DNA of 64,000 nt from an uncultured Acidobacteriota bacterium (GTDB lineage: Bacteria > Acidobacteriota > UBA6911 > RPQK01 > JAPXNP01): NCBI GenBank assembly GCA_964524795.1, contig CAZGEH010000001.1, positions 495,298-559,297 on the forward strand, written 5' to 3'. The translations under genes and the position numbers were made by a program. Shown here piece by piece: positions 5,545-61,239 of the stretch (positions are counted from its first letter, which is position 1; each line of letters begins with the position of its first letter). The notes under the pieces are model-generated. The model was not told the DNA's origin. It searched no databases and saw nothing but the letters and a program-made list of their open reading frames with translations.

Positions 5545-6822
5545 ATGCTAGATTTGACAACCATGATACGCCGCCTGTCGCCCCTGTTCATCGTGCTCGC
5601 CGCCGGCGGGGGCGGCGCCTACCTGTGGCTGAGACCAGCAGAGGCGGGTGTCGAGGTGGAGACCGTTGAGGCCGCCAGGCGGGAACTGTTCCAGTCCTGG
5701 GTGACAGCTTCCGGGGAGATCGTTGCGACCCGTTACGCCGACATCGGTACCGATGTGATGGGGAAGATCGTGGAGCTGGCGGTGGCGGAGGGACAGGCGG
5801 TGAGAGCCGGCCAAGTCCTGGCCCGCATCGACCCGGTTCCGGCTTCCGCCGAGCTGGAGGCGGCCGAAGGCCAGGTACGGGTATTCGAAGCCGAACGCGA
5901 CGCCGCCCTGCAAGATGCGTCGGCGGTCGAAGCACAGTTAACCCGCAACCGGGCGCTTCTGGAAGAGGCCCGACTGAATCTGGACCGGGCGGAGCGCCTG
6001 CTGATGCGGGGCGTCGTGGCACAGGCTGAAGTCGATCGCCATCGCACCGAAGTGGGACGGCTGCGGGCCGAGATGGCCGCGGCTGAAGCGGCCGTCCAGC
6101 GGAGCCGTGAGGCGGTGACGGCTGCCGAGCGGCGGATTGCTCAGGCAGGGGCCCAGGTTAAACGGACTCGGGACACTTACGCCAAGACCGAGATTCGCTC
6201 TCCCCTGTCCGGCGTCGTATCCCGACTGAACGTCCGGGAAGGGGAGATGGTGGTGGTGGGCATCCAGAACCAGCCTGGGACCACCCTGATGACAGTCTCC
6301 GATCTGAGCGCGGTAAATGCGGAGGTCAAGGTGGCGGAGGCTGAGATCCTGCGGGTGAAGCTGGGTCAACCGGCGCGGGTTCTCCTGGATGCTCTGGGAG
6401 GTCGCGAGTTTTCGGGTGAGGTTGTGGAAATCGGCACCAGCGCTTTGCCCCAGGGAGGAATCGGGGCGGCTGCGCGGGAGTTCAAGGTCGTGGTCCGGAT
6501 CCGGGAGGCGAACCCCGGACTGCGCCCCGGGCTCACCTGCGACGTGGAGATTCTGGCCGACGAGATCCCGGCGGCGGTTACAGTGCCTCTGCAGGCCGTC
6601 GTGATCCGCCGGATCGATGGAGAAGACCGGACGGGAGTTTTTCTCCTCCAGGAGGGGCGGGCGGAGTTTCACCCGGTGGTTCCCGGCGTCATCGGGGGTC
6701 TGGAGATGGCGGTACAAGGCCTGGACCCCGGCCTCCAGGTCATCTCGGGGCCGTTCCAGGTGTTGCGGGAGCTTCAGCCGGGGGTTCCGGTGCGGCGGTC
6801 CGGAATGGACCAGATGAGGTAG
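5545..6822 (+). CDS. HlyD/MacA-family periplasmic adaptor (membrane fusion protein)
   Basis: Signal anchor (MIRRLSPLFIVLAAGGGG), a long coiled-coil stretch (LEAAEGQVRVFEAERDAALQ...RLRAEMAAAEAAVQRSREAV), then beta-barrel/lipoyl-like motifs (TEIRSPLSGVVSRLNVREGEMV). Divergent from the permease pair. Start taken at ATG 5545; ATG 5563 is an alternative. Confidence 0.8.
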   Translation: MLDLTTMIRRLSPLFIVLAAGGGGAYLWLRPAEAGVEVETVEAARRELFQSWVTASGEIVATRYADIGTDVMGKIVELAVAEGQAVRAGQVLARIDPVPASAELEAAEGQVRVFEAERDAALQDASAVEAQLTRNRALLEEARLNLDRAERLLMRGVVAQAEVDRHRTEVGRLRAEMAAAEAAVQRSREAVTAAERRIAQAGAQVKRTRDTYAKTEIRSPLSGVVSRLNVREGEMVVVGIQNQPGTTLMTVSDLSAVNAEVKVAEAEILRVKLGQPARVLLDALGGREFSGEVVEIGTSALPQGGIGAAAREFKVVVRIREANPGLRPGLTCDVEILADEIPAAVTVPLQAVVIRRIDGEDRTGVFLLQEGRAEFHPVVPGVIGGLEMAVQGLDPGLQVISGPFQVLRELQPGVPVRRSGMDQMR

Positions 6823-6850: not shown

Positions 6851-6880
6851 TTGACACTTCCGGCACCCGGGCCGTAAAAT
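6851..6880 (+). promoter_or_regulatory. sigma70-type promoter for tRNA-Lys
   Basis: TTGACA (6851-6856), 18-nt spacer, TAAAAT (6875-6880), about 20 nt upstream of the tRNA 5' end. Confidence 0.5.
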
Positions 6881-6901: not shown

Positions 6902-6976
6902 GGGCCGCTAGCTCAATGGTAGAGCAAGTGACTCTTAATCACTAGGTTCCAGGTTCGAGTCCTGGGCGGCTCACCA
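6902..6976 (+). tRNA. tRNA-Lys (anticodon CTT), CCA encoded
   Basis: Cloverleaf folded by hand: acceptor GGGCCGC/GCGGCTC (one G-U), D stem GCTC/GAGC, anticodon stem AGTGA/TCACT with loop CTCTTAA (anticodon CTT), T stem CCAGG/CCTGG with TTCGAGT loop, discriminator A, then CCA. Confidence 0.9.
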
Positions 6977-7141: not shown

Positions 7142-10100
7142 ATGTGGAGAAGCCGGCTCATCTTGACAGCTCTGGTCACCTGCACGCCCAGTCTGTACGC
7201 CCAAACCTCGACCGCCCGGATCTGGGAAGAGGACCTGGTCATTCCAACATGGAAGATCGGCCCTCCCGAAGCGAATCCCACCTTCGAGTGGAGCTCCCGC
7301 CGTCAGGAAGTCTACCCCTATCCCTATAAAGAGATTCTCACTGACGAGAAGACCGACCAGACCTATAGGGCTTGCTGGATCGAGAACGAGTTCATCAAGG
7401 TCCTCGTCCTGCCGGAGATCGGCGGCCGCCTCCATGGAGCACTCGACAAGACCAACGGCTACCGTTTCTTCTACTGGCAGCCCACCATCAGACCGGCACT
7501 TGTAGGGATGACCGGCGCCTGGATCTCCGGAGGAATCGAGTGGAATTTCCCGCATGGACATCGCCCCACCGGTTTCAGCCGGGTCCAGTATCGGCTGGTG
7601 GAGAATCCTGACGGCAGCAGGACAGTCTGGGTTGGAGAGCCGGAACTGGTACATCGGATGCGATGGATCGTCGGGCTGACCGTCTACCCCGGCCGCAGCG
7701 TCATCGAAGCCAAGGTACGACTCTACAACCCCACACCTCTCCGCCACTCGTTCATGATGTGGACCACCACCGCGGTCCATGCCAACGACGATTACCAGGC
7801 TGTCTTCCCCACCCGGGGAATGACTGGACATGGCAAGTACGAATTCTTCAACTGGCCCGTCCATGAAGGGGTGGATATCAGCTGGTGGAAAAACGTGCCC
7901 AACGCGGCCAGCTTCTTTGCCCTGGAGCCAGGCGGATTCTTCGGCGGCTGGGATCACGGCCGCCGGGCGGGGACGGTCATCGTCGGAGACCCGGGGATCG
8001 TCATCGGCAAGAAGTTCTGGACTTGGGGGACGGCACCTTTCGGAAGGCTTTGGGAGCCGATCCTCACCGACGGCGGCGGACCCTACCTGGAACCCCAGGC
8101 GGGAGCCTACTCCGACAACCAGCCTGACTACCACTGGATGGAACCAGGCGAAGTGAAGAGCTTCAGCCATTTCTTCTTTCCGGTCAGGGATATCGGCCTC
8201 TTCAAGGAAGCCAACGTACACGGCGCACTGAACCTGGAGGTGGAGGCCGATGCGCTCCATCTCGGCGTTTACTCCACCGCCATTCTGAAAGGGGCCCGAA
8301 TCCTGGTGCACCGGGGGGAACAGGAAATCTTCAGCCGGACTGTGGATCTTGACCCCGGCCGTCCGTTTGTCCAACGCGTGCCAATGGCAGGGGCGGCTTC
8401 AGATCCCTATGCCTTCCGGCTCTCGCTGGCCGACGCCGAGGGCGAGACTCTGCTCAGCTACCAGCCCAAGCCGACCGAACCGATGACGCTCCCGAAACCG
8501 ACGGAGAATTTCCCGAAACCCGAGGAGATCGCCTTCCAGGACCAGCTCTGGCACGCCGGTGACTGGACCTACAAGTTCCGGGAGCCGGGAGGGGGGCGGG
8601 TCTATTTCGAGGAAGCCCTTAGAAGGGACCCCGGCGATTCCCGATCCAACATCTCGATGGCGGAGCTCGAGATCAAGTCCTTGCGATACGAGCGGGCGCT
8701 GGAGCACCTCCAGCGGGCCGCCGCCCGCGATCCCGATAACGGGCGGATTTTCTATCTTCGCGGTATCGCCCTGGAGGCCCTCGGCCGTTACCGGGAGGCC
8801 CACGATGCCTTCTATCGCGCCAGCCATGCGGAATCTGAACTCGGCCGGGCCAACGCCCGGCTGGCCGCCCTGGCGTTGCGGCGGGGAGACGCCGCAACGG
8901 CGGTCGACTTCATCAGTCGGGCCCTGGAAAACAACTCCCTGAACCCCCAGTGGTGGGATATGAAAGCCACCGCTTTGCGTCACGCCGATCTCAGGGCGGC
9001 GGCGGAAAAGGCTGCCCGGCACGCGCTGGAGCTGGATCCTCTGGACGGCTGGGCCGCCCACGAACTGCACGTCCTCGCTCCCGGCCGCGGTGGCAATGCC
9101 GAGGCCCGTCTGGTCTCGCACCTCCTGCACAACCCCCAGACCGCCCTGGAAACCGTCCTGGGATACATCGGGATGGGGCTGTATCGGGACGCCGATGACC
9201 TGCTGGCGACGGTGCCGGAGGATGCGCTGGTCCGGTACTACCGGGGCTTCGTGGCCGCCCGGCTGGGGGACCAGGAGCGGGCGCGGCGATACTTCCGGCA
9301 GGCGGCGGAGGCATCATTGGACTCGGTCTTCGCCTTTCGCGCCGAAGAAACCGAGGTCTTCCGTACGGCACTGGAGTTCCAGCCTGAGGATGGCCGCGCC
9401 AATTATTTCCTCGGCCTGGTTTATGCCAAGGCTGGAGACGTGGACAAGGCGGCGGCCGAGTGGCAGGAGGCAGTCCGCCTGGAACCGGGAAACGCCCGGG
9501 CCTGGAGAAACCTCGGGCTGGCGCTGGCCCGGCAAGGCCGCGAGGCGCTGCCTCGGGCACTCGAGTGCTATGAAAAGGCGGCCCGCCTGCTGCCGAGGGA
9601 CTCCCGGATCCTCCTCGAGCTGGACGAGATCAGGGAACGGCAGGGCGTCAGCGGCCGCCAGCGGCTGGAAGCCCTCCAACGGCAACGGGAGACAGTCGTG
9701 GAGAGGGACGAGCTGGTAGCCCGGCTGGTGGACCTCCTGATCGCGGAAGGCGACCATGCCGGAGCTCTGGAGTACCTGGATCGCCACCATTTCAACACGT
9801 GGGAGGGCAGTTACGGGATTCACAACGCCTATATCGAGGCCCACGTCGGAGTCGCTGAAAGGTCCAGCGACCCCCGCGAAGCACTGGCCCATTACCTGAA
9901 GGCCTGCGAGTATCCCATGAATCTTGAGGTGGCTCCCAGGGAACCCAACCTGCGTGGATTCCTTTACTACCCCATGGCCCGCCTCTACTCCAAGATCGGG
10001 GACAACACGGAAGCCCGACGGCTGCTCGAAGTGACTGCCGGGGAGAGCACCGAATACCCGACACTCGCCACTTTTTATCAGGCGTTGGCGCTGCGCGATT

Positions 10101-47200: not shown

Positions 47201-47375
47201 AGGTTCAAGGGGTTCAAGGGTTTAAAGCTTTAAAGGTTTTTAAGAGGCGAAGGGGTGGGGTTCGGGATGCTCACTTCGAAGCCTTCGACCGATCGAGTAC
47301 AGGCGGTTCCCTGCTCAAACCTTTATTAGACCTTTGAAAACCTCTGAACCCTTAAACCTTTGAACCCTTGAACCT

Positions 47376-52293: not shown

Positions 52294-52411
52294 AGCCCCG
52301 GGACAGGGGAGACCGTCACCTTCCGAAGCAGCAGGTTCCATGTTTTTTCCCAGGTTCGGACTGCGCGACAATGTGCTGACCATGTGGGGAGTCGGTCAGT
52401 CAGAGGTGGGC

Positions 52412-53635
52412 ATGCTGCATCACGACTGGGCTGGTTTGTTGCTGGTGGCGGTGGTTTTGGCCGGAGCTTGCGGACGGCCGGAGCAGGCTCCGTCGCCATC
52501 AGCTTCTCAGACCTTCGGAGAGGCGGTCCGTTTCCTGCAGTCGCATCAGGAGGTTCTCATCCTCAGCCGCGGAAGCGCCCAGATCGCCGTGGTGCCGGCC
52601 TGGCAGGGCCGGGTCATGACCAGCACCAACGGCGGCGCGTCCGGACCCAGCTTCGGCTGGATCAATCACAAGCTCATCACGTCCGGCGAACTGCAGCCCC
52701 ACATCAACGTGTATGGCGGCGAGGACCGTTTCTGGATGGGGCCCGAAGGAGGCCAATATGCGATCTTCTTCCGCCCCGGCGACCCCTTCGATTTTGACCA
52801 CTGGCAGACGCCGGCCTGCATCGATACCGAGCCGTTCGAAACCGTCCGGGTCAGTGACACTGAGGCCGAGTTCCAGCGGGAAGTCGAACTGACCAACTAT
52901 TCGGGAACGAAGTTCAATGTCCGCATCCATCGGACTGTTCGGCTGCTGGATGATGCGGAGATCCGTTCGACTTTGCAGGACCTGGAGCCGGGACTCCGTG
53001 TCGTCGCCTTTGAATCGGAGAACCGGCTTGTCAACGCCGGCGGCGAGCCCTGGTCCAAGGCCACCGGGCTGTTGTCGGTCTGGATTCTGGGCATGTTCAA
53101 CCCATCTCCTCAGACCACCGTCATCGTGCCTTTCGTCGAGGGCAGCGAGCAGGAGCTGGGACCGATCGTGAACGACAGCTATTTCGGAAAGGTGCCGCCG
53201 GAGAGGCTGCGCATCGGCGAGAAGGCCCTCTCTTTCAGTGCGGACGGCCGGTATAGAAGCAAGATCGGTCTCAGTCCCGCCCGTGCGCGGGATCTGCTCG
53301 GGAGCTGGGACGCCCAGAACGAAGTGCTGACTCTGGTTCGCTATAACAAACCTGAGGGCGTGGCCGACTACGTCAACTCGGAATGGCGGCTGCAGGAGCA
53401 GCCCTACCGGGGTGACGTAATCAACAGTTACAACGATGGCCCACCAGCGCCCGGTGTCCCCCCGATGGGGCCTTTCTACGAATTGGAGACCTCATCGCCC
53501 GCCCGGGAATTGCAGCCGGGAGAGGAGGTACTCCACATCCACCAGACCATCCACCTCAGCGGCGACCGGGCCGCCCTCCATCGGTTGGCGGAACGGTTGC
53601 TGGGAGTGTCTGTGGACCCGCTCGCCATCCCTTAG
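52412..53635 (+). CDS. hypothetical lipoprotein (conserved, unknown family)
   Basis: Lipoprotein signal MLHHDWAGLLLVAVVLAGAC with a GAGGTG Shine-Dalgarno. A 407-aa soluble domain with no motif I can assign. Confidence 0.5.
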   Translation: MLHHDWAGLLLVAVVLAGACGRPEQAPSPSASQTFGEAVRFLQSHQEVLILSRGSAQIAVVPAWQGRVMTSTNGGASGPSFGWINHKLITSGELQPHINVYGGEDRFWMGPEGGQYAIFFRPGDPFDFDHWQTPACIDTEPFETVRVSDTEAEFQREVELTNYSGTKFNVRIHRTVRLLDDAEIRSTLQDLEPGLRVVAFESENRLVNAGGEPWSKATGLLSVWILGMFNPSPQTTVIVPFVEGSEQELGPIVNDSYFGKVPPERLRIGEKALSFSADGRYRSKIGLSPARARDLLGSWDAQNEVLTLVRYNKPEGVADYVNSEWRLQEQPYRGDVINSYNDGPPAPGVPPMGPFYELETSSPARELQPGEEVLHIHQTIHLSGDRAALHRLAERLLGVSVDPLAIP

Positions 53636-53655: not shown

Positions 53656-54084
53656 TCAGTGCGAGGCTCCGCCTTGGAGCTGTTCCAGATAGGCCACCAG
53701 GTCGACGGCTTGCCTGACGGTCAGCCGTTCCCCGTAATCCGTCATCCTGGACTTCCCTCCGGTCATGATGTTCACCTCGCTGGCGGTCTGGCCAGCGGGA
53801 GGCTGCGGCTGGGCAAACTGATGGGACGGCGCGACGATGGACTCAAACAGATAGAGGCGCGACTTGGGAGAGCCCGTCGCCCCCAACGCCACGTAGGTCG
53901 GAGTGATCGTGGTGGGTGGAGGATACTCGTCCCCCTTGACCTCATGGCACCCGTAACACTGAAGTTCGGTGAAAACCGCCTTGCCGGCAGCCGGGTCCCC
54001 GTCCGGCAGCACCAAAGGGGTTTGAGAACAGGCGCCTGCCGCCAACAGCGAAGTTGCGAGAGAAAGCAGCCCATGGCCTCTCAT
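53656..54084 (-). CDS. c-type cytochrome lipoprotein (class I, single haem)
   Basis: Lipobox LLAAGACS and the haem-binding CYGCH. 142 aa. GGAGG Shine-Dalgarno. Immediately downstream of the PQQ dehydrogenase. Confidence 0.8.
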   Translation of the reverse strand: MRGHGLLSLATSLLAAGACSQTPLVLPDGDPAAGKAVFTELQCYGCHEVKGDEYPPPTTITPTYVALGATGSPKSRLYLFESIVAPSHQFAQPQPPAGQTASEVNIMTGGKSRMTDYGERLTVRQAVDLVAYLEQLQGGASH

Positions 54085-54202: not shown

Positions 54203-56332
54203 TCAGGGAAGGCGGAAGCAATACCAGGCGTCTCCGGGTTTGGTTTCGGGCTTGCCGCCGCCCCCGGCCGCCACGATGACATACTGGCGCCCGTCGACCT
54301 CGAAGGTTGCCGGCGTGGCGTACGCACCAGCATCCAACTGGAACTCCCACAGCGTTTTTCCGCTCTCGGCGTCGATGGCGCGGAAGCGTTCATCCATGGA
54401 CGCCCCGATGAGGACCAGACCGCCACGGGTCACAAGCGGCCCCCCCATGTTGAAGGTGCCCGTGGGCGGATAGCCACGCCCTTCCAGTTCAGGGTAGGTT
54501 CCCAAAGGCACCTGCCAGACAAACCGCCCCTCGTTCAGGTCAATGGCAGTCAAGGTGCCCCACGGCCGCAGGTTCACCGGAAAGCCCTCCGGATCCCGGA
54601 ACACATTGTGGCCGCTTGCCACGAAAGGGACGTCTCCGGCGAAAGTCAGGTCGGCCGGGTCCAGCCGGACGGTGGTTTCGAGCTGCTTCTCGGTCAGAAA
54701 CGCGAGCAGGGACTGAAGTTCCACCTCGGCGAGATGCCCAAAGGCCGGCATCTGCCCGCGGCCTTCCCGGATGGTGCGGCGGATCTCCCCGGGATCACGA
54801 TTCCGCAGACCCTGTTTGAGCCGGCTCAGCGAACTGGTGCCCTCCGCCGCCACAGAATCGTCCAGACCGTGACAGGCCGAGCAGTTCGCACCGAAGAGCT
54901 GGCGGCCCAGCGCGCCAAGGGTGGTTTCGGCGGGAGGGGTCGCCTCGACCATCGAGATCCACTCGGCTTCGTTGCTGGCGTTGACGTACAGGACACCGGT
55001 TTCCGGATCGAAGGCGGCGCCGCCCCAGTCCGTGCCGCCGTTGAATTGCGGCAGGACCACCGACGGCTCCAGCGAGGGCGGCAGAAATATGTCCCCCGTC
55101 CTCATCCCCCGCAGTCTTTCCAGGACATGCTCCCGGGCTGCCGGGTTCAGATCGGTCACCTCGGCCGCCGTGAAACGCTGCTGGGCGTAAGGCGGCGGCA
55201 CCAGGGGGAATGGCTGGGTGGGCCACAGTTTCTCACCTGGAAGATCGGAGGCAGGTACCGGACGCTCCTCCACCGGAAACAAGGGGACGCCGGTCTCCCG
55301 ATCCAGCATGAACAGGTGCCCCATCTTGGTGGGCTGGGCGACGGCATCGACCAGCCGCCCTTCGCGCCGCACTGTGACCAGGTTCGGGGGACAGGGGAGG
55401 TCATAGTCCCAGACATCATGATGGACGACCTGGTAGTGCCAGATCCGTTTGCCGGTCCGGACGTCCAGGGCGATGACGCAGTTGCCGAAGAGGTTGGCCC
55501 CGATGCGGTTTCCACCGAAGTGATCGTAGGCAGGGGAACCGGTCCCGAAGAAGACCCAGCCGCGCCTGTGCTCCAGGGTGAAACCGCCCCACGCATTGGC
55601 GCCGGCGGCGGTGAGCCAGGCGTCCGGCGGCCAGGTTTCGTAGCCGAATTCCCCCGGATGAGGAATCGTGTGGAAGATCCAGCGGAGTTGCCCGCTCCGG
55701 GCGTCGTAGGCACGGACATGTCCGGGCGCGGCCGGACCCGGCCCTTCCCCCACCATTGCGCCGACAACCACGAAATCCTCGAAAACCAGGGGCGGCGTGG
55801 TAGCACTGACCAGCAGCCCGGCCGTGTCCCGGCCCAGGTTCTGCCGCAGGTCGATCCGCCCTCCGGCTCCGAACGCGGCCACCGGCCGGCCGGTGGCCGC
55901 CTCCAAAGCGTAGAGGTAGGGGCCGGCAGGAAAGAAGATGCGCTGGTGGTCGCCACCATCCCACCAGGCGACGCCCCGGTTGACACCGCCGCCGGGCGCG
56001 TCGCCGAAAGGGTCGAAGCGCCAGATTTCCCGGCCGGTCGCGGCCTCCAGAGCCAGCAGCTTCAGAGCCGGCGAGGTCAGGTAAATGATTCCGTCGACGA
56101 TGATGGGATTGCATTCGATCGTGGTGGGGGGATGTTGGCGGGCGTCGCCGGTGCGGAAAATCCATGCCGGCTGGAGCTTCGCCACATTGCCGCGATGGAT
56201 CTGATCCAGGGTTGAATACTTCGAGCCGCTCCAGTCCCCGCTGTACACTGCCCACTGTCGGTAGCTGGCCTGAGCCGGCACGTCGTCGTGCCGGACGGAC
56301 ACACAACCGGCGCCCAAGAGGGCCAGCAGCAT
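54203..56332 (-). CDS. PQQ-dependent dehydrogenase (8-bladed beta-propeller quinoprotein) with inserted cytochrome c domain, lipoprotein
   Basis: Lipoprotein signal MLLALLGAGCVS. PQQ-propeller W-motif repeats (AWIFRTGD..., GREIWRFD, GQLRWIFH, GKRIWHYQ, GKTLWEFQ). Internal CSACH haem site with downstream MPAFG (Met ligand). Confidence 0.8.
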   Translation of the reverse strand: MLLALLGAGCVSVRHDDVPAQASYRQWAVYSGDWSGSKYSTLDQIHRGNVAKLQPAWIFRTGDARQHPPTTIECNPIIVDGIIYLTSPALKLLALEAATGREIWRFDPFGDAPGGGVNRGVAWWDGGDHQRIFFPAGPYLYALEAATGRPVAAFGAGGRIDLRQNLGRDTAGLLVSATTPPLVFEDFVVVGAMVGEGPGPAAPGHVRAYDARSGQLRWIFHTIPHPGEFGYETWPPDAWLTAAGANAWGGFTLEHRRGWVFFGTGSPAYDHFGGNRIGANLFGNCVIALDVRTGKRIWHYQVVHHDVWDYDLPCPPNLVTVRREGRLVDAVAQPTKMGHLFMLDRETGVPLFPVEERPVPASDLPGEKLWPTQPFPLVPPPYAQQRFTAAEVTDLNPAAREHVLERLRGMRTGDIFLPPSLEPSVVLPQFNGGTDWGGAAFDPETGVLYVNASNEAEWISMVEATPPAETTLGALGRQLFGANCSACHGLDDSVAAEGTSSLSRLKQGLRNRDPGEIRRTIREGRGQMPAFGHLAEVELQSLLAFLTEKQLETTVRLDPADLTFAGDVPFVASGHNVFRDPEGFPVNLRPWGTLTAIDLNEGRFVWQVPLGTYPELEGRGYPPTGTFNMGGPLVTRGGLVLIGASMDERFRAIDAESGKTLWEFQLDAGAYATPATFEVDGRQYVIVAAGGGGKPETKPGDAWYCFRLP

Positions 56333-56496
56333 CAGGGACGTCCCCTTCGGAAGCGTGTCTGCCCGGAACGGGAACCTGCGGGAATCTGAGGTCGTCTTGT
56401 CTTCTGCTCTCATTCCTCCGTCCTCATTCGTCGTCCGCCGATGATACGGGCACAGCCTCAGTCTGTAACCCGATATGTGATGCCTCAATAAAAATC

Positions 56497-56525
56497 TTGA
56501 CATGGACGCGAGTTTACGCTACAGT
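56497..56525 (+). promoter_or_regulatory. near-consensus sigma70 promoter in AT-rich islet
   Basis: TTGACA (56497-56502), 17-nt spacer, TACAGT (56520-56525). Followed by AGGAG (56541-56545) and GTG 56552. Confidence 0.55.
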
Positions 56526-56551
56526 TGCAAGTAAAATTGCAGGAGCTGATC

Positions 56552-56830
56552 GTGTTGAGGCGGTGGCGGTTTGTATATGCCTTCCTCTTAGTTTGGGTTT
56601 TTTGGGCGCCGACGGGATCATCAGCCCAGTTCATGTGCCATCGTGAATGCCCCGAGGAAGACTTGGCCCAGTATTGGGAGCGTCTCGACTGCTGTGGGCG
56701 GGATGGCTGGATCATTCTGCATTATCCAATCGCCAGCCCACTCGAAGCGCCCTTCAGTTGCACGTTTGCAGAGCCGTTTTACCCGATCGTCGGCTGCGGG
56801 CAGTTTACCGGCGGGAGCTGCAGTTGGTGA
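56552..56830 (+). CDS. small secreted cysteine-rich protein (8 Cys in about 67-aa mature domain), unknown function
   Basis: GTG start with AGGAG-N6 Shine-Dalgarno. Signal peptide VLRRWRFVYAFLLVWVFWAPTGSSAQ. Mature part FMCHRECPEEDLAQYWERLDCCGRDGW...SCTFAEPFYPIVGCGQFTGGSCSW. Local GC is well below the genome background. Confidence 0.5.
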   Translation: MLRRWRFVYAFLLVWVFWAPTGSSAQFMCHRECPEEDLAQYWERLDCCGRDGWIILHYPIASPLEAPFSCTFAEPFYPIVGCGQFTGGSCSW

Positions 56831-56936
56831 TACATGGTGGAGGACTATCCTCTGAAGAGCTGCCCGCGCTGCGGGGTTGAGTGTGCGTAAGCCAGACGCC
56901 GTGCAAGATGCTGCAGACCGTTGGAGGCGTACTGCA

Positions 56937-57895
56937 ATGAGAATGTGCAACCCGGTCTTGCTTGGGTTACTGTTGACCGTGTCCTGTCCCCTGCTGGCCG
57001 GTGGCCAAGACGTTCTCCGATTCCCACACCGGGAACGTCTGATCGATATGGCCGTCGCGCCGTCAGGCAGGAGCTTCATCCTGAACGAATCCGGCTATGA
57101 TGAGCTGGACACGACCAGCGGGGCAATCGTACCTCGTCGATTTGATCCGACTGCTCTCGGGATGGGCCTGGTTTTCCAGCGGACTGCAAATCTGGCGATA
57201 TCCACGGATGGATCCGGCCGCCCGGTGATCCTCTGGCGCGGCCGTCTTGCCGACGGCTCGGCGCATCTCTTCGTGTCCAACATGGAATCAGGAGAAACCG
57301 TCGAGCTTGCCCCTTTCGGACTCAGCCGGGTCCATGATTTTGCGACGTACGCCGACGGGAGACTCCTTGTCGTCGGCCTGGGCCCACCGGCTCCCTCCTC
57401 CCTGCTCCATGAGTTTCGCGCCAACGGCGAGCATGTCCGTTCGTACCATACGCCTGACGCTTCATCCGCCGACGAGCCGGGATACTCGGTCGTGGCGGTG
57501 CTGGGGACTCCGTCTATCTGGTCCAAGGGATCAAGTCGTCTCGGGTCCACGAGTATCGGGCGGGTCAACTGGTCGCCACCTACGACCTGGGCGACGACGG
57601 AAAGGCGAGGTTCGTGTGGGGGATGGCTGCCGGGCCCGACGCTGTTTGGGTACATGCGGTATCTGGCACCGAATCAGAGGCTACCGACCGGACCGGGACT
57701 CAGCGCTTCGCGGCCCTCTTCGATGGCGGGCAGGAACTTTGGACCATCCGCAGCCGCGTACTTGCTCTGGTCGACTCGGGGTTCGATTCCGCCGCCCCCA
57801 TCCTCGGTGTGCTCCCCGATGGCCGGTTTGCGGCGGTGAAGTTGAGAGGAATCGGCGCGCCGTTTCTCGAGCCCCTATCGCTGGCGAGTCGGTAG
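56937..57895 (+). pseudogene. secreted protein gene disrupted by a frameshift near the GGGG run at 57504-57507 (or sequencing error)
   Basis: Frame A (from ATG 56937; signal peptide MRMCNPVLLGLLLTVSCPLLAGGQ) reads plausibly to ...YSVVAVLG. The protein-like reading then continues in the +2 frame (DSVYLVQGIKSSRVHEYRAGQLVATYDLGDDGKARFVWG...PLSLASR, stop 57895), while frame A degenerates into Pro/Ser/Gly-rich low-complexity sequence. Confidence 0.4.
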
Positions 57896-58117: not shown

Positions 58118-58831
58118 ATGCAAGACGGCCGGCAGGAAACGGAAGTTTACTCGGTCGGACATGTCGAAACGCTGGTTCATGGGCGCTTCCTGATCCGACG
58201 TGTGCCGGTGATGCCGGCACCGCTTCTCGTGGGCTTCCACGGCTACGCCGAAAACGCCGCGGACCAGATGGAACGCCTCCGCCGAATCCCCCAGGCTGAA
58301 CACTGGCTGATCTGCTCCATCCAGGCCCTGCACCCCTTCTACACGCGCTCGAATGGAGAGGTCGTGGCGAGCTGGATGACCAGCCTGGATCGCGAACGCG
58401 CGATCGAGCACAACCTGGAGTATGTCCGCCGGGTGCTGCAGCGCCTGGCGCGTCACTTCGAGGGCATGGGAATGCCACCGCTGTTCGCCGGGTTTTCCCA
58501 GGGAGCCGCCCTGGCCTGGCGGGCGGCCTGCCGGCTGGGCAGCCGGGGCGTCATTGCCGTGGGCGCGGAAATTCCACCGGAGCTGACCCTCGAGCAACTG
58601 GCTGCCGTTCCCGCGGCGTTCCTGGCGCGGGGGACCAACGACCGCAAATACCCACCTGAACGCATGGCCTCCGACCTGTCCCGGCTCGAACGATGCGGGG
58701 TGGAGGTGCAGACAGCGGAGTTTCCAGGAGGTCACCTTTGGAACGAGGCGCTGGATCCCCACCTGGCCCGCTTCATCGAGCGGCTCCCTTGCTGCTCCGG
58801 GACCCGCCCCGTCGCTCAGACCAAACCGTAG
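58118..58831 (+). CDS. alpha/beta hydrolase, phospholipase/carboxylesterase family
   Basis: LLVGFHGYAE, nucleophile elbow GFSQGA, and a C-terminal His region. About 237 aa (ATG 58076 is an alternative start). Confidence 0.75.
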   Translation: MQDGRQETEVYSVGHVETLVHGRFLIRRVPVMPAPLLVGFHGYAENAADQMERLRRIPQAEHWLICSIQALHPFYTRSNGEVVASWMTSLDRERAIEHNLEYVRRVLQRLARHFEGMGMPPLFAGFSQGAALAWRAACRLGSRGVIAVGAEIPPELTLEQLAAVPAAFLARGTNDRKYPPERMASDLSRLERCGVEVQTAEFPGGHLWNEALDPHLARFIERLPCCSGTRPVAQTKP

Positions 58832-59520
58832 CGGACCAGCAGCTCCCGATCCGAGATCAGGTCCGCCGGTTTTCCGTCCGCCACCAGGCGGCCGCGATCG
58901 AGGACCACCATGCGGTCGGCGATTTCTTCCACCAGCGGGAGGTCGTGGGTCACGATGAGCTGGGTCTCCGGGCGGTCTGCCAGGACCCGCAGGATCCGGC
59001 GGCGCCCCCGGGCGTCCAAGGCCGAGGTAGGTTCGTCCAGGGCCAGGATCCGGGGACTCATTGACAGCACGGTGGCGATGGCGGCGAGCTTCTTCTCTCC
59101 CAGCGAGAGCTGGTGCGGCGCCCGTTCAGCCTTGCCGTTCAAGCCCACCGCCTGCAACGCCGCTTCAACCCGCTCTCTCACCTCCCCTTCCGGCAGTCCC
59201 ATGTGCAGGGGCCCGAAGGCCACGTCGTCATACACCGTCGGACAGAAAAGCTGATCGTCTGGATCCTGGAACACCTGGCCTACCATTGACCGGATCCGGC
59301 GCAGGTTGGCGTCGTTGACCGGTATGCCCGCCACGAAGATCTGTCCTTCGCCTCGTAACAGGCCGTTCAGGTGCAGCAGGAGGGTGGATTTCCCGGCTCC
59401 GTTGGCTCCGACAATGCCGGTTTTCTGACCCGGCGGCACCACCAGGTTGATCCCCTCCAGGGCGCTGAGACCTCCCGGGTATCGGAAGGAAAGATTCCTG
59501 ATCTCCAGATCCGGGGTCAT
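58816..59520 (-). CDS. cbiO: ECF transporter ATPase (CbiO/EcfA-like)
   Basis: Walker A GANGAGKST, Q-loop, ABC signature LSLGEKK, Walker B ILALDEPTSALD. N-terminal LEIRNLSFRYP is typical of CbiO. 234 aa. Confidence 0.9.
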   Translation of the reverse strand: MTPDLEIRNLSFRYPGGLSALEGINLVVPPGQKTGIVGANGAGKSTLLLHLNGLLRGEGQIFVAGIPVNDANLRRIRSMVGQVFQDPDDQLFCPTVYDDVAFGPLHMGLPEGEVRERVEAALQAVGLNGKAERAPHQLSLGEKKLAAIATVLSMSPRILALDEPTSALDARGRRRILRVLADRPETQLIVTHDLPLVEEIADRMVVLDRGRLVADGKPADLISDRELLVRYGLV

Positions 59521-60287
59521 GTGAACCTTCGTGCTCCTACCGCTGCCAGCAACAGAAACGCCGCTGCCACGAAAGCCCAGTCGCGCGGGCGCAGCGAGCG
59601 TGCCGGGAGGCCGCGGGGCTGTCCGTCGAAGCCCCGCGACAGCATCGCCGCATGCAGCCGCTCACTGCGGGCATACGATCGCAGGAACAGGCTGCCCAAC
59701 ATCCGGCCGGCGATCTGCAGATTGAGCAGGAGCGATGCCGGGAACCCAGGCCCGGGCCCTCCGCAGCGGGACGCCCGCGCCCGCATCATGGCCATGCCTT
59801 CCTCACCAATGACCGCCAGGTATCGATGCATGAGTCCCATGACCCCAATCAGGGGGGCGGGGACCCGCAGGGACGCCAACGCTTCCAGCAACTCGTTGCT
59901 TGGCGTGGTCCAGTTCAGCACCAGCACCACGGAAACCGACAGCAGGATTTTCGCCGAGACGGTGAGATACAGTGCCAACCCGGGAGAGGTCACCGTCACG
60001 CCGACCAGAGGGAGTCTTGCCGCCTCCGCCCCCGGAGTCGTGAGCGGAATCAGAGCTGCCGCCAGCAGGAAAGGTACCGCCAGCAGGAAACCCTTGACCA
60101 GGTAGGACCATGGGACCCGAAGGACCGCCAAACAGACGGCCACGACCGAAGCAGGTAGCAGGAGGCTCATCCAGTCGGCGACCGGAGCCAGGTTGATGGC
60201 GGCGATCAGCGTCAGGGCCGCTGACAGTCTGGATGTGGGATGGATACTGGGAGACCTGTCCAGCAGCCCTCCGGACCCGAGGTCCAA
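59517..60287 (-). CDS. cbiQ: ECF transporter transmembrane (T) component CbiQ/EcfT
   Basis: CbiQ-like N-terminus LDRSPSIHPTSRLSAALTLIAAI and 5-6 TM helices. Start placed at TTG 60287, one nt after the cbiM stop (translational coupling). The track ORF start at 60350 would overlap cbiM by 62 bp. Confidence 0.7.
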   Translation of the reverse strand: MDLGSGGLLDRSPSIHPTSRLSAALTLIAAINLAPVADWMSLLLPASVVAVCLAVLRVPWSYLVKGFLLAVPFLLAAALIPLTTPGAEAARLPLVGVTVTSPGLALYLTVSAKILLSVSVVLVLNWTTPSNELLEALASLRVPAPLIGVMGLMHRYLAVIGEEGMAMMRARASRCGGPGPGFPASLLLNLQIAGRMLGSLFLRSYARSERLHAAMLSRGFDGQPRGLPARSLRPRDWAFVAAAFLLLAAVGARRFT

Positions 60288-60288
60288 G

Positions 60289-61239
60289 CTAGTCCTCCGC
60301 GCGCCGGGCGGCGAACCGTCCCACGGCCCGCACGACAGCGAAGACGGCAAGGGTGCCGATCACCATTGCCAGCATTGTCGAGGGGGCCCAGTGGCTGAGA
60401 AAACCTACCGTATAGTCCGGGAACAGTTCGAAGAACGAAGGCTGCGCCATGCGGGCGAAACCACCCTCCTCCGCCACCACCTCGAGGCCGTCGGGGCTGG
60501 AGGAAGCAAACGGGGCGAGTAGCGCCAGCCCCAAGGCCGCCAGCAGCGCCAGGGTCGTGGCAATGGCTGACCACTGGCCGGCTGGCCGACGGGCAGCCAC
60601 CGTAAGATCAGGCCTGGCGGATTCCAGGAGGCTGAGTGCGGCCACCGTTACCACCGCCTCGACCACCCCAACCAGGGCGTAAACTCCGGTCAGCGCCGGC
60701 AGGGACAGGGACAGGGGGTAGGTTCCAGAAAGACCAAGTTGAACGGCGGTGGCCGCGGCCCCCACTTCCACAGAGAGCCAGGATCCCACCAACGCGGCCA
60801 GCTTGACCCCTCCCGTCAACCGGTGCATCAGGGTGAAGGCGGACGAAGCTGCGAAAACCGCCAGAAAGGCCATGTTCAGAAGGTTACAACCCATGGCAAA
60901 CAACCCGCCGTCCTGAAACAGCAGTCCCTGGACCAGGACCACTGCCACCATCACCACTGAACCCGCCCATGGGCCCAGGAGGATTCCCGCCAGGGCCGCC
61001 CCCAGGACGTGGCCGGAAGTTCCGCCGGCGATGGGAAAATTCAGGGCTTGCGCAGCAAAGATGAACGCGGCCAGCACTCCCATCAACGGAATCTGGCGGT
61101 CCAGGAACTGGAGCCGGGTCTGACGGAGTGCCAGCCACACCAGCAGTGCCCCCACGACCCACCCGACCAGGGCGACGCCGGGGCTGAGGAAGCCATCAGG
61201 GATGTGCAGGGCGAGCACGTCGGCAGTCATCCGCTGCAA
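60289..61239 (-). CDS. cbiM: cobalt/nickel ECF transporter S-component CbiM fused to C-terminal PDGLE domain
   Basis: CbiM signature LHIPDGFLSP at the N-terminus plus about 6 TM helices. The C-terminal 90 aa contain SPDGLEVV (PDGLE-domain motif, CbiN-like role). Confidence 0.85.
   Translation of the reverse strand: MQRMTADVLALHIPDGFLSPGVALVGWVVGALLVWLALRQTRLQFLDRQIPLMGVLAAFIFAAQALNFPIAGGTSGHVLGAALAGILLGPWAGSVVMVAVVLVQGLLFQDGGLFAMGCNLLNMAFLAVFAASSAFTLMHRLTGGVKLAALVGSWLSVEVGAAATAVQLGLSGTYPLSLSLPALTGVYALVGVVEAVVTVAALSLLESARPDLTVAARRPAGQWSAIATTLALLAALGLALLAPFASSSPDGLEVVAEEGGFARMAQPSFFELFPDYTVGFLSHWAPSTMLAMVIGTLAVFAVVRAVGRFAARRAED

Follow-up and report, generated by a model that had tools for sequence, protein, structure and literature searches.

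A lineage-restricted gene pair for a cysteine-rich exported mini-protein and a beta-propeller, probably inactivated recently in an uncultured Acidobacteriota genome

The locus and its divergent intergenic region

The window, a stretch of 64,000 nt from an uncultured Acidobacteriota bacterium, contains a small ORF on the plus strand (56552-56830) that begins with GTG, ends with the TGA at 56828-56830 and encodes 92 aa. Its neighbours are genes for a beta-propeller and an alpha/beta hydrolase. The propeller gene (56937-57895, plus strand) codes for a secreted product of about 320 aa with its own predicted signal peptide, and its ATG at 56937, preceded by GGAGG, lies 46 nt after the TAA that closes the tail of the small gene (see below). 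On the other side, a PQQ-dependent dehydrogenase (PQQ-DH) with an inserted cytochrome c domain is encoded on the minus strand (54203-56413), followed by a cytochrome c gene (53656-54084, minus strand). Between about 45.9 and 63.7 kb, the annotated genes comprise those for a GFO/IDH/MocA oxidoreductase, a PPK, an S9 peptidase, a DUF6786 protein, the cytochrome c, the PQQ-DH, the hydrolase, CbiMQO and a PAS protein. The DUF6786 gene (52340-53635, plus strand; E = 3e-155) adjoins the cytochrome c/PQQ-DH pair both here and in the related genome described below. The minus-strand genes at 58816-61239 form a CbiM(+PDGLE)/CbiQ/ABC-ATPase operon for an ECF-type cobalt or nickel transporter; at gathering thresholds, neither a cobalamin riboswitch nor any other Rfam element was detected upstream of it.

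The PQQ-DH gene and the small ORF are separated by a divergent intergenic region of 138 bp (56414-56551) with 49.3% GC, which a preliminary description of this DNA had presented as a low-GC islet in a background of roughly 68% GC. The drop is real: GC is 46.4% at 56460-56610, and the lowest 150-bp value of the whole window, 46%, starts at 56451. The background had been overstated, however, as GC is 63.9% across the window and 63-65% in the flanks. The intergenic region at 47201-47375, which adjoins the polyphosphate kinase gene, is comparably AT-rich (47.4% GC), so the patch is not unique within the window.

Within this region, TTGACA (56497-56502) and TACAGT (56520-56525) are separated by 17 nt and make up a predicted sigma70-like promoter on the plus strand (56497-56525; 10/12 match to the consensus), directly preceded by the A-rich stretch AATAAAAATC. 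A Shine-Dalgarno sequence, AGGAG, follows at 56541-56545, 6 nt before the GTG at 56552. Both elements are present where they had been described, but the promoter is not, as had been claimed, far closer to consensus than anything else in the window. A scan of the whole window returned better matches (11/12) at 6851 (plus strand) and 38653 (minus strand) and a further 10/12 match at 9429 (minus strand), bringing the sites with at least 10/12 to four, against 0.59 expected by chance. The site at 6851-6880 (plus strand, 11/12) reads TTGACA-N18-TAAAAT and stands immediately 5' of a tRNA-Lys(CTT) gene (6902-6976, plus strand). A second predicted sigma70-like promoter in the intergenic region, GTTACA-N17-TATCAT (56441-56469, minus strand), faces the PQQ-DH gene.

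The small gene, its relatives and the origin of the unit

The first 25 codons of the small ORF (56552-56626) were assigned to a signal peptide by inspection of the translations, with LRRWR as the n-region, a 13-residue hydrophobic core and a c-region PTGSSA/Q, where the slash marks the predicted cleavage site. The product thus reads MLRRWRFVYAFLLVWVFWAPTGSSA up to this site and continues QFMCHREC...GGSCSW to the stop. Translation bears out the earlier account of a signal peptide and a 67-aa mature part (56627-56827). The cysteines of that part had been counted as eight; there are seven, which is also the sum of the motifs listed in the preliminary description. An AF2 model of the truncated mature protein had a pLDDT of 41.5 and gave no usable fold.

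A word-index search of 5.8 billion clusters matched only the protein itself (P0001, encoded on the 2.1-kb JGI contig L001, which is 100% identical to the window), and a HMMER pass over 1.84 billion representative proteins returned only its own cluster. The key relative was reached through the downstream gene, whose sole homologue, P0002, is encoded on contig L002 of an Acidobacteriota MAG with the locus-tag prefix Kow001. MAGs labelled 'Kow' were obtained from Kowakubi, an iron-rich hot spring in Japan (PMC12501874). L002 carries genes for an S9 peptidase, a DUF6786 protein, a cytochrome c and a PQQ-DH and then, divergently, a 109-aa ORF and a 321-aa ORF, an order syntenic with the window; the 736-aa PQQ-DH gene called there is consistent with 56413 as the start of its window counterpart. 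The 109-aa ORF product (P0003) is 83% identical to the window protein and shares a 90% cluster with P0001. These two are the only members of the family among about 15 billion proteins, and the gene is known from only two uncultured Acidobacteriota lineages.

The propeller P0002 and the mature small protein are encoded identically to L002 on a further contig, L003 (Logan assembly of SRR6186653), from a metagenome of a 2.8-km-deep Siberian aquifer (PMC5701477). At about position 50-60 of L003, compared with 6555-6562 of L002, the small gene is short of one A at the codon of the signal-peptidase site (GGCCC-GTTT), a loss that would throw the signal peptide out of the reading frame. Either a third lesion of independent origin or an error close to the end of the contig could account for it.

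The intact precursor is 109-112 aa long and leaves a mature protein of about 87 aa rich in Trp, Tyr, Phe and Pro, with ten invariant cysteines (C26, C30, C44, C45, C67, C79, C87, C101, C104 and C108 in L002 numbering) and the family motifs YWERLDCCGRDGW and SCPRCG. Scans of genomes, metagenomes and viral contigs with back-translated motifs recovered no relative, and tblastn against plasmids gave no match to the small protein. Two contigs, L084 and L085, were set aside as chance matches on SCSWWYM in a low-GC organism.

The two signal peptides differ in their n- and h-regions, being divided into MLRRWR, FVYAFLLVWVFWA and PTGSSA/Q in the window and into MKRYLH, SFLMIWVLW and PPTGSSA/Q in L002, while PTGSSAQ is kept. 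By inspection, the predicted basic n-region, hydrophobic h-region and small residues at -3 and -1 are those of a Sec-type signal peptide. A Tat signal peptide was considered for RRWRF in the window and rejected, as KRYLHS is found at that position in the homologue; because the twin arginine is not conserved (KR in L002), Sec export appears likelier than Tat export.

The small genes of the window and L002 differ at 33 nucleotides, 23 of which are third codon positions, and dN/dS is 0.066-0.076 (0.066 in the mature part). This is the lowest value among the locus genes compared with L002 (PQQ-DH, 0.11; DUF6786, 0.13; propeller, 0.31), at a dS between the two genomes of about 0.5. No alternative frame conserves the amino-acid sequence as well as the annotated one. 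The predicted promoter has a counterpart in L002, TTGACT-N17-TACACT, in which the hexamers and the 17-nt spacing are kept while the sequence around them has diverged, and the Shine-Dalgarno sequence TGCAGGAG is kept as well. By its hexamers, its 17-nt spacer and its conservation in the relative, the predicted small-ORF promoter is of the sigma70 type. On the minus strand, GTTACA-N17-TATCAT is part of a block of some 60 bp, ahead of the PQQ-DH gene, that L002 shares almost unchanged. This block and the promoters are kept in spite of an 87-bp length difference: L002 has 87 bp extra between the two divergent promoters (6330-6416, against about 56480 in the window). Constraint on the protein together with conservation of the promoter and Shine-Dalgarno sequence shows that the small ORF is a real, selected protein-coding gene behind a conserved promoter. 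Its product is a small Cys- and aromatic-rich protein with a predicted signal peptide.

The low GC of the region had suggested possible horizontal acquisition, that is, that the islet and its ORF form a recently acquired insert. Some of the data agree with this: the small ORF (0.68) and the first part of the propeller gene (0.69) have a GC3 about 0.1 lower than the neighbouring genes (0.72-0.84), and both genes were absent from all 80 loci examined around relatives of the PQQ-DH gene (up to 63% identity). However, GC is strongly reduced only in the 138-bp divergent promoter region, just as the patch at 47201-47375 is intergenic, and no mobile-element marks surround the unit: flanking repeats, tRNA genes and integrase genes were not found, nor were matches in plasmids or viruses. 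Moreover, the two-gene unit occupies the same place in a syntenic MAG at a dS of about 0.5, which indicates that it was there before the two lineages separated. A recent horizontal insertion is therefore improbable, and the patch is better described as an ordinary divergent promoter region.

The premature stop and the frameshift

Both L002 and L003 read GGSCSW, then W, then YMVEDYRLKSCPRCGMECA and a stop; where they have TGG (Trp90 of the 109-aa protein), the window has the TGA at 56828-56830. The lost C-terminus is still present in frame behind this stop as the conserved tail YMVEDYPLKSCPRCGVECA followed by TAA (56831-56890, with the TAA at 56888-56890), and includes three further cysteines, among them those of the CPRC knuckle. 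The change thus costs the last 19 residues and leaves the window product with an odd number of cysteines, seven. Of the 19 tail residues, 17 are identical to L002, with 2.5 non-synonymous and 3.5 synonymous differences (dN/dS 0.13). About 12 non-synonymous changes would be expected in the tail, by our estimate from a dS of about 0.5, had it drifted neutrally since the split; because the tail is far less changed than this, the stop appears to be young.

These observations bear on the preliminary description, in which the ORF looked like an 8-Cys protein with four disulfides, perhaps a toxin, inhibitor, bacteriocin-like or signalling peptide; on this view the TGA would be the true gene end. Such an intact and functional mini-protein would fit the presence of a promoter, a Shine-Dalgarno sequence, a signal peptide and a strongly constrained mature region, and a gene caller had predicted exactly this 92-aa product. 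The stop is nonetheless premature relative to the only homologue, which has ten cysteines in its intact form, continues through TGG for 19 more residues with three more of them, and shares a tail that is in frame and constrained in the window. The odd number of cysteines and the broken state of the putative partner gene (see below) also speak against a finished product. No toxin, bacteriocin or defence family was matched, no relative occurs in plasmids or viral contigs, and the neighbours include no immunity or dedicated export gene. We therefore consider it improbable that the TGA is the proper stop of a functional mini-protein, although the truncated 67-aa form might retain some activity.

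Alternatively, the UGA could be read through or recoded, as Trp by a near-cognate tRNA-Trp or as selenocysteine, so that the full-length protein is made on purpose. The position of the stop exactly at a Trp codon and the conserved, in-frame tail would be expected in that case. However, TGA is an ordinary stop in this DNA and ends 12 of 18 confident genes, and the RNA after the codon (56815-56900) folds no better than shuffled sequences (z = +1.2) and has no Rfam match. A SECIS or other RNA element for programmed recoding was thus rejected, also because the homologue has Trp at this position whereas selenocysteine usually aligns with Cys. In addition, the adjacent propeller gene carries a plain frameshift at a site without a slippery sequence. 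Deliberate readthrough is thus very unlikely; at most, trace amounts of full-length protein could be made if tRNA-Trp misreads UGA.

The frameshift in the propeller gene is a 1-nt deletion between 57499 and 57500, after which the conserved frame continues in another phase to the stop at 57893-57895. The propeller is an orphan with P0002 as its sole homologue, and dN/dS against it is 0.31 before the shift and 0.30 after it. Because selection looks the same on both sides, this lesion is also likely to be young. The AF2 model of the intact P0002 (321 aa; pLDDT 58, pTM 0.61) is all-beta and matches six-bladed propellers of the NHL/Kelch/Drp35 type in the PDB, a match that fixes the fold class only; the downstream product is thus predicted to be a six-bladed beta-propeller.

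Since neither lesion is followed by relaxed selection and both look very young, they could in principle be sequencing or assembly errors, or minority alleles, with both genes intact in the organism. A Logan assembly of SRR12687342 (L086; 10.2 kb compared) is 100% identical to the window with both lesions included, as is the JGI contig, although the three identical sequences may share the same reads. On the other side, the four neighbouring genes are intact; ten other window genes have full-length Pfam matches, and no frameshift was seen in those checked. Both lesions fall within a unit of 1.3 kb, and none was seen in about 6.8 kb of coding sequence next to it; for two lesions placed at random, we estimate a chance of about 0.03 for this outcome. 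Given two further assemblies that match exactly and an otherwise clean window, an assembly artefact is unlikely, and so are a sequencing artefact common to all three and a minority allele. It is accordingly improbable that both genes are intact in the organism.

Taken together, these data suggest that the two genes probably form a genuine, lineage-restricted unit, inactivated recently in this genome by a TGG-to-TGA change and a 1-nt deletion, both young relative to the split of the two lineages. The pair would have become dispensable only recently and would now be decaying in this population. The main value of this reading is a correction: the supposedly complete, toxin-like 8-Cys gene of an acquired islet is better seen as a truncated orphan allele behind an ordinary divergent promoter. 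The finding has no bearing on any long-standing open question. The small gene nevertheless provides a clear case of an exported mini-protein that is young or emerging fast, as it occurs in two lineages only among about 15 billion proteins and yet is the most constrained gene at its locus. Its intact and broken alleles form a matched set and its partner decays alongside, which suggests a joint function and offers a natural knock-out for comparison.

Resemblances to known families and a possible function

The small protein had no usable match in Pfam, NCBIfam, PHROGs or PADLOC. When both full-length mature sequences were scanned against Pfam at E values up to 10, only zf-tcix was returned (E = 0.07), on KSCPRCGMEC. 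The protein resembles the orphan, Sec-exported, disulfide-rich mini-proteins of bacteria in its signal peptide (SSA/Q), its mature chain of about 87 aa, its 10 cysteines and aromatic residues and its restriction to a lineage, but differs from them in falling into no sequence family. In our working model, the precursor would be exported by Sec, cleaved after SSA and folded in the periplasm with disulfides, either as five pairs or as three pairs and a C-terminal Cys-knuckle metal site.

The C-terminal 33 residues show some likeness to the zinc-ribbon domain of COX5B and yeast Cox4 (PF01215), with an ungapped IVGC-x21-CPxCG pattern and an aromatic WW/WF cluster in between. By phmmer, S. pombe Cox4 (8c8q_D, COX5B family) was matched with E = 0.028, or E = 0.12 with a two-sequence profile, and is the only COX5B-family chain in the PDB that scored at all. 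An hhalign comparison with bovine COX5B gave a probability of 72%, which we take as a lead only. The IVGC-x21-CPxCG spacing is identical to that of bovine COX5B, yet a Gln stands opposite the second ligand of knuckle 1, leaving one of the four Zn ligands unaligned in the small protein. The Pfam COX5B model fails to match, and COX5B is located on the matrix side whereas the small protein is predicted to be exported to an oxidising compartment. An unrelated chain, 8akp_A (named 'catalytic domain of G7048' by its depositors), was matched with E = 0.018-0.08 and beats Cox4 when the two-sequence profile is used. Because the Cox4 and 8akp_A matches are borderline and exclude each other and the Pfam COX5B model is unmatched, we treat the Cys-knuckle resemblance as a lead only.

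A functional link between the small protein and the propeller is suggested by their gene order, their restriction to the same two lineages and their joint decay. From these three sequence-level observations we infer a partnership, in which the small protein would bind to the presumably co-transcribed propeller or serve as its small subunit. MauA, the light chain of methylamine dehydrogenase, and QhpC, the gamma subunit of QHNDH, are small Cys-rich subunits of periplasmic quinoprotein amine dehydrogenases that are paired with a beta-propeller subunit. The situation here is similar in that the gene for a small exported protein rich in Cys and Trp adjoins one for a secreted beta-propeller, near genes of periplasmic redox proteins (PQQ-DH and cytochrome c). 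There are also differences: the predicted propeller looks six-bladed and NHL-like, as opposed to the seven-bladed heavy or beta chains of those enzymes. The small protein matched neither PF02975 nor PF08992 in Pfam, nor the solved chains among PDB sequences (E up to 10), and no gene annotated in the interval of about 45.9 to 63.7 kb encodes a MauG-like di-haem peroxidase, a radical-SAM QhpD-like maturase, QhpE or QhpG. By analogy with these TTQ/CTQ amine dehydrogenases, whose light and gamma subunits serve as a model for a small subunit that carries a cofactor, one could speculate that the 10-Cys, Trp-rich mini-protein and the propeller are two subunits of an undescribed periplasmic complex, with a cross-linked or metal cofactor in the small subunit and a tie to the electron-transfer genes for PQQ-DH and cytochrome c, and that the window carries a null allele of it. 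We consider this proposal a long shot.

The PQQ-DH itself shows the Pfam order PQQ, Cytochrome_CBB3, PQQ, which places the cytochrome c domain inside the propeller. It scores far under the NCBIfam cut-offs of the named PQQ-DH subfamilies, and more than 590 relatives of it occur in MAGs of Acidobacteriota, Verrucomicrobiota and Bacteroidota.
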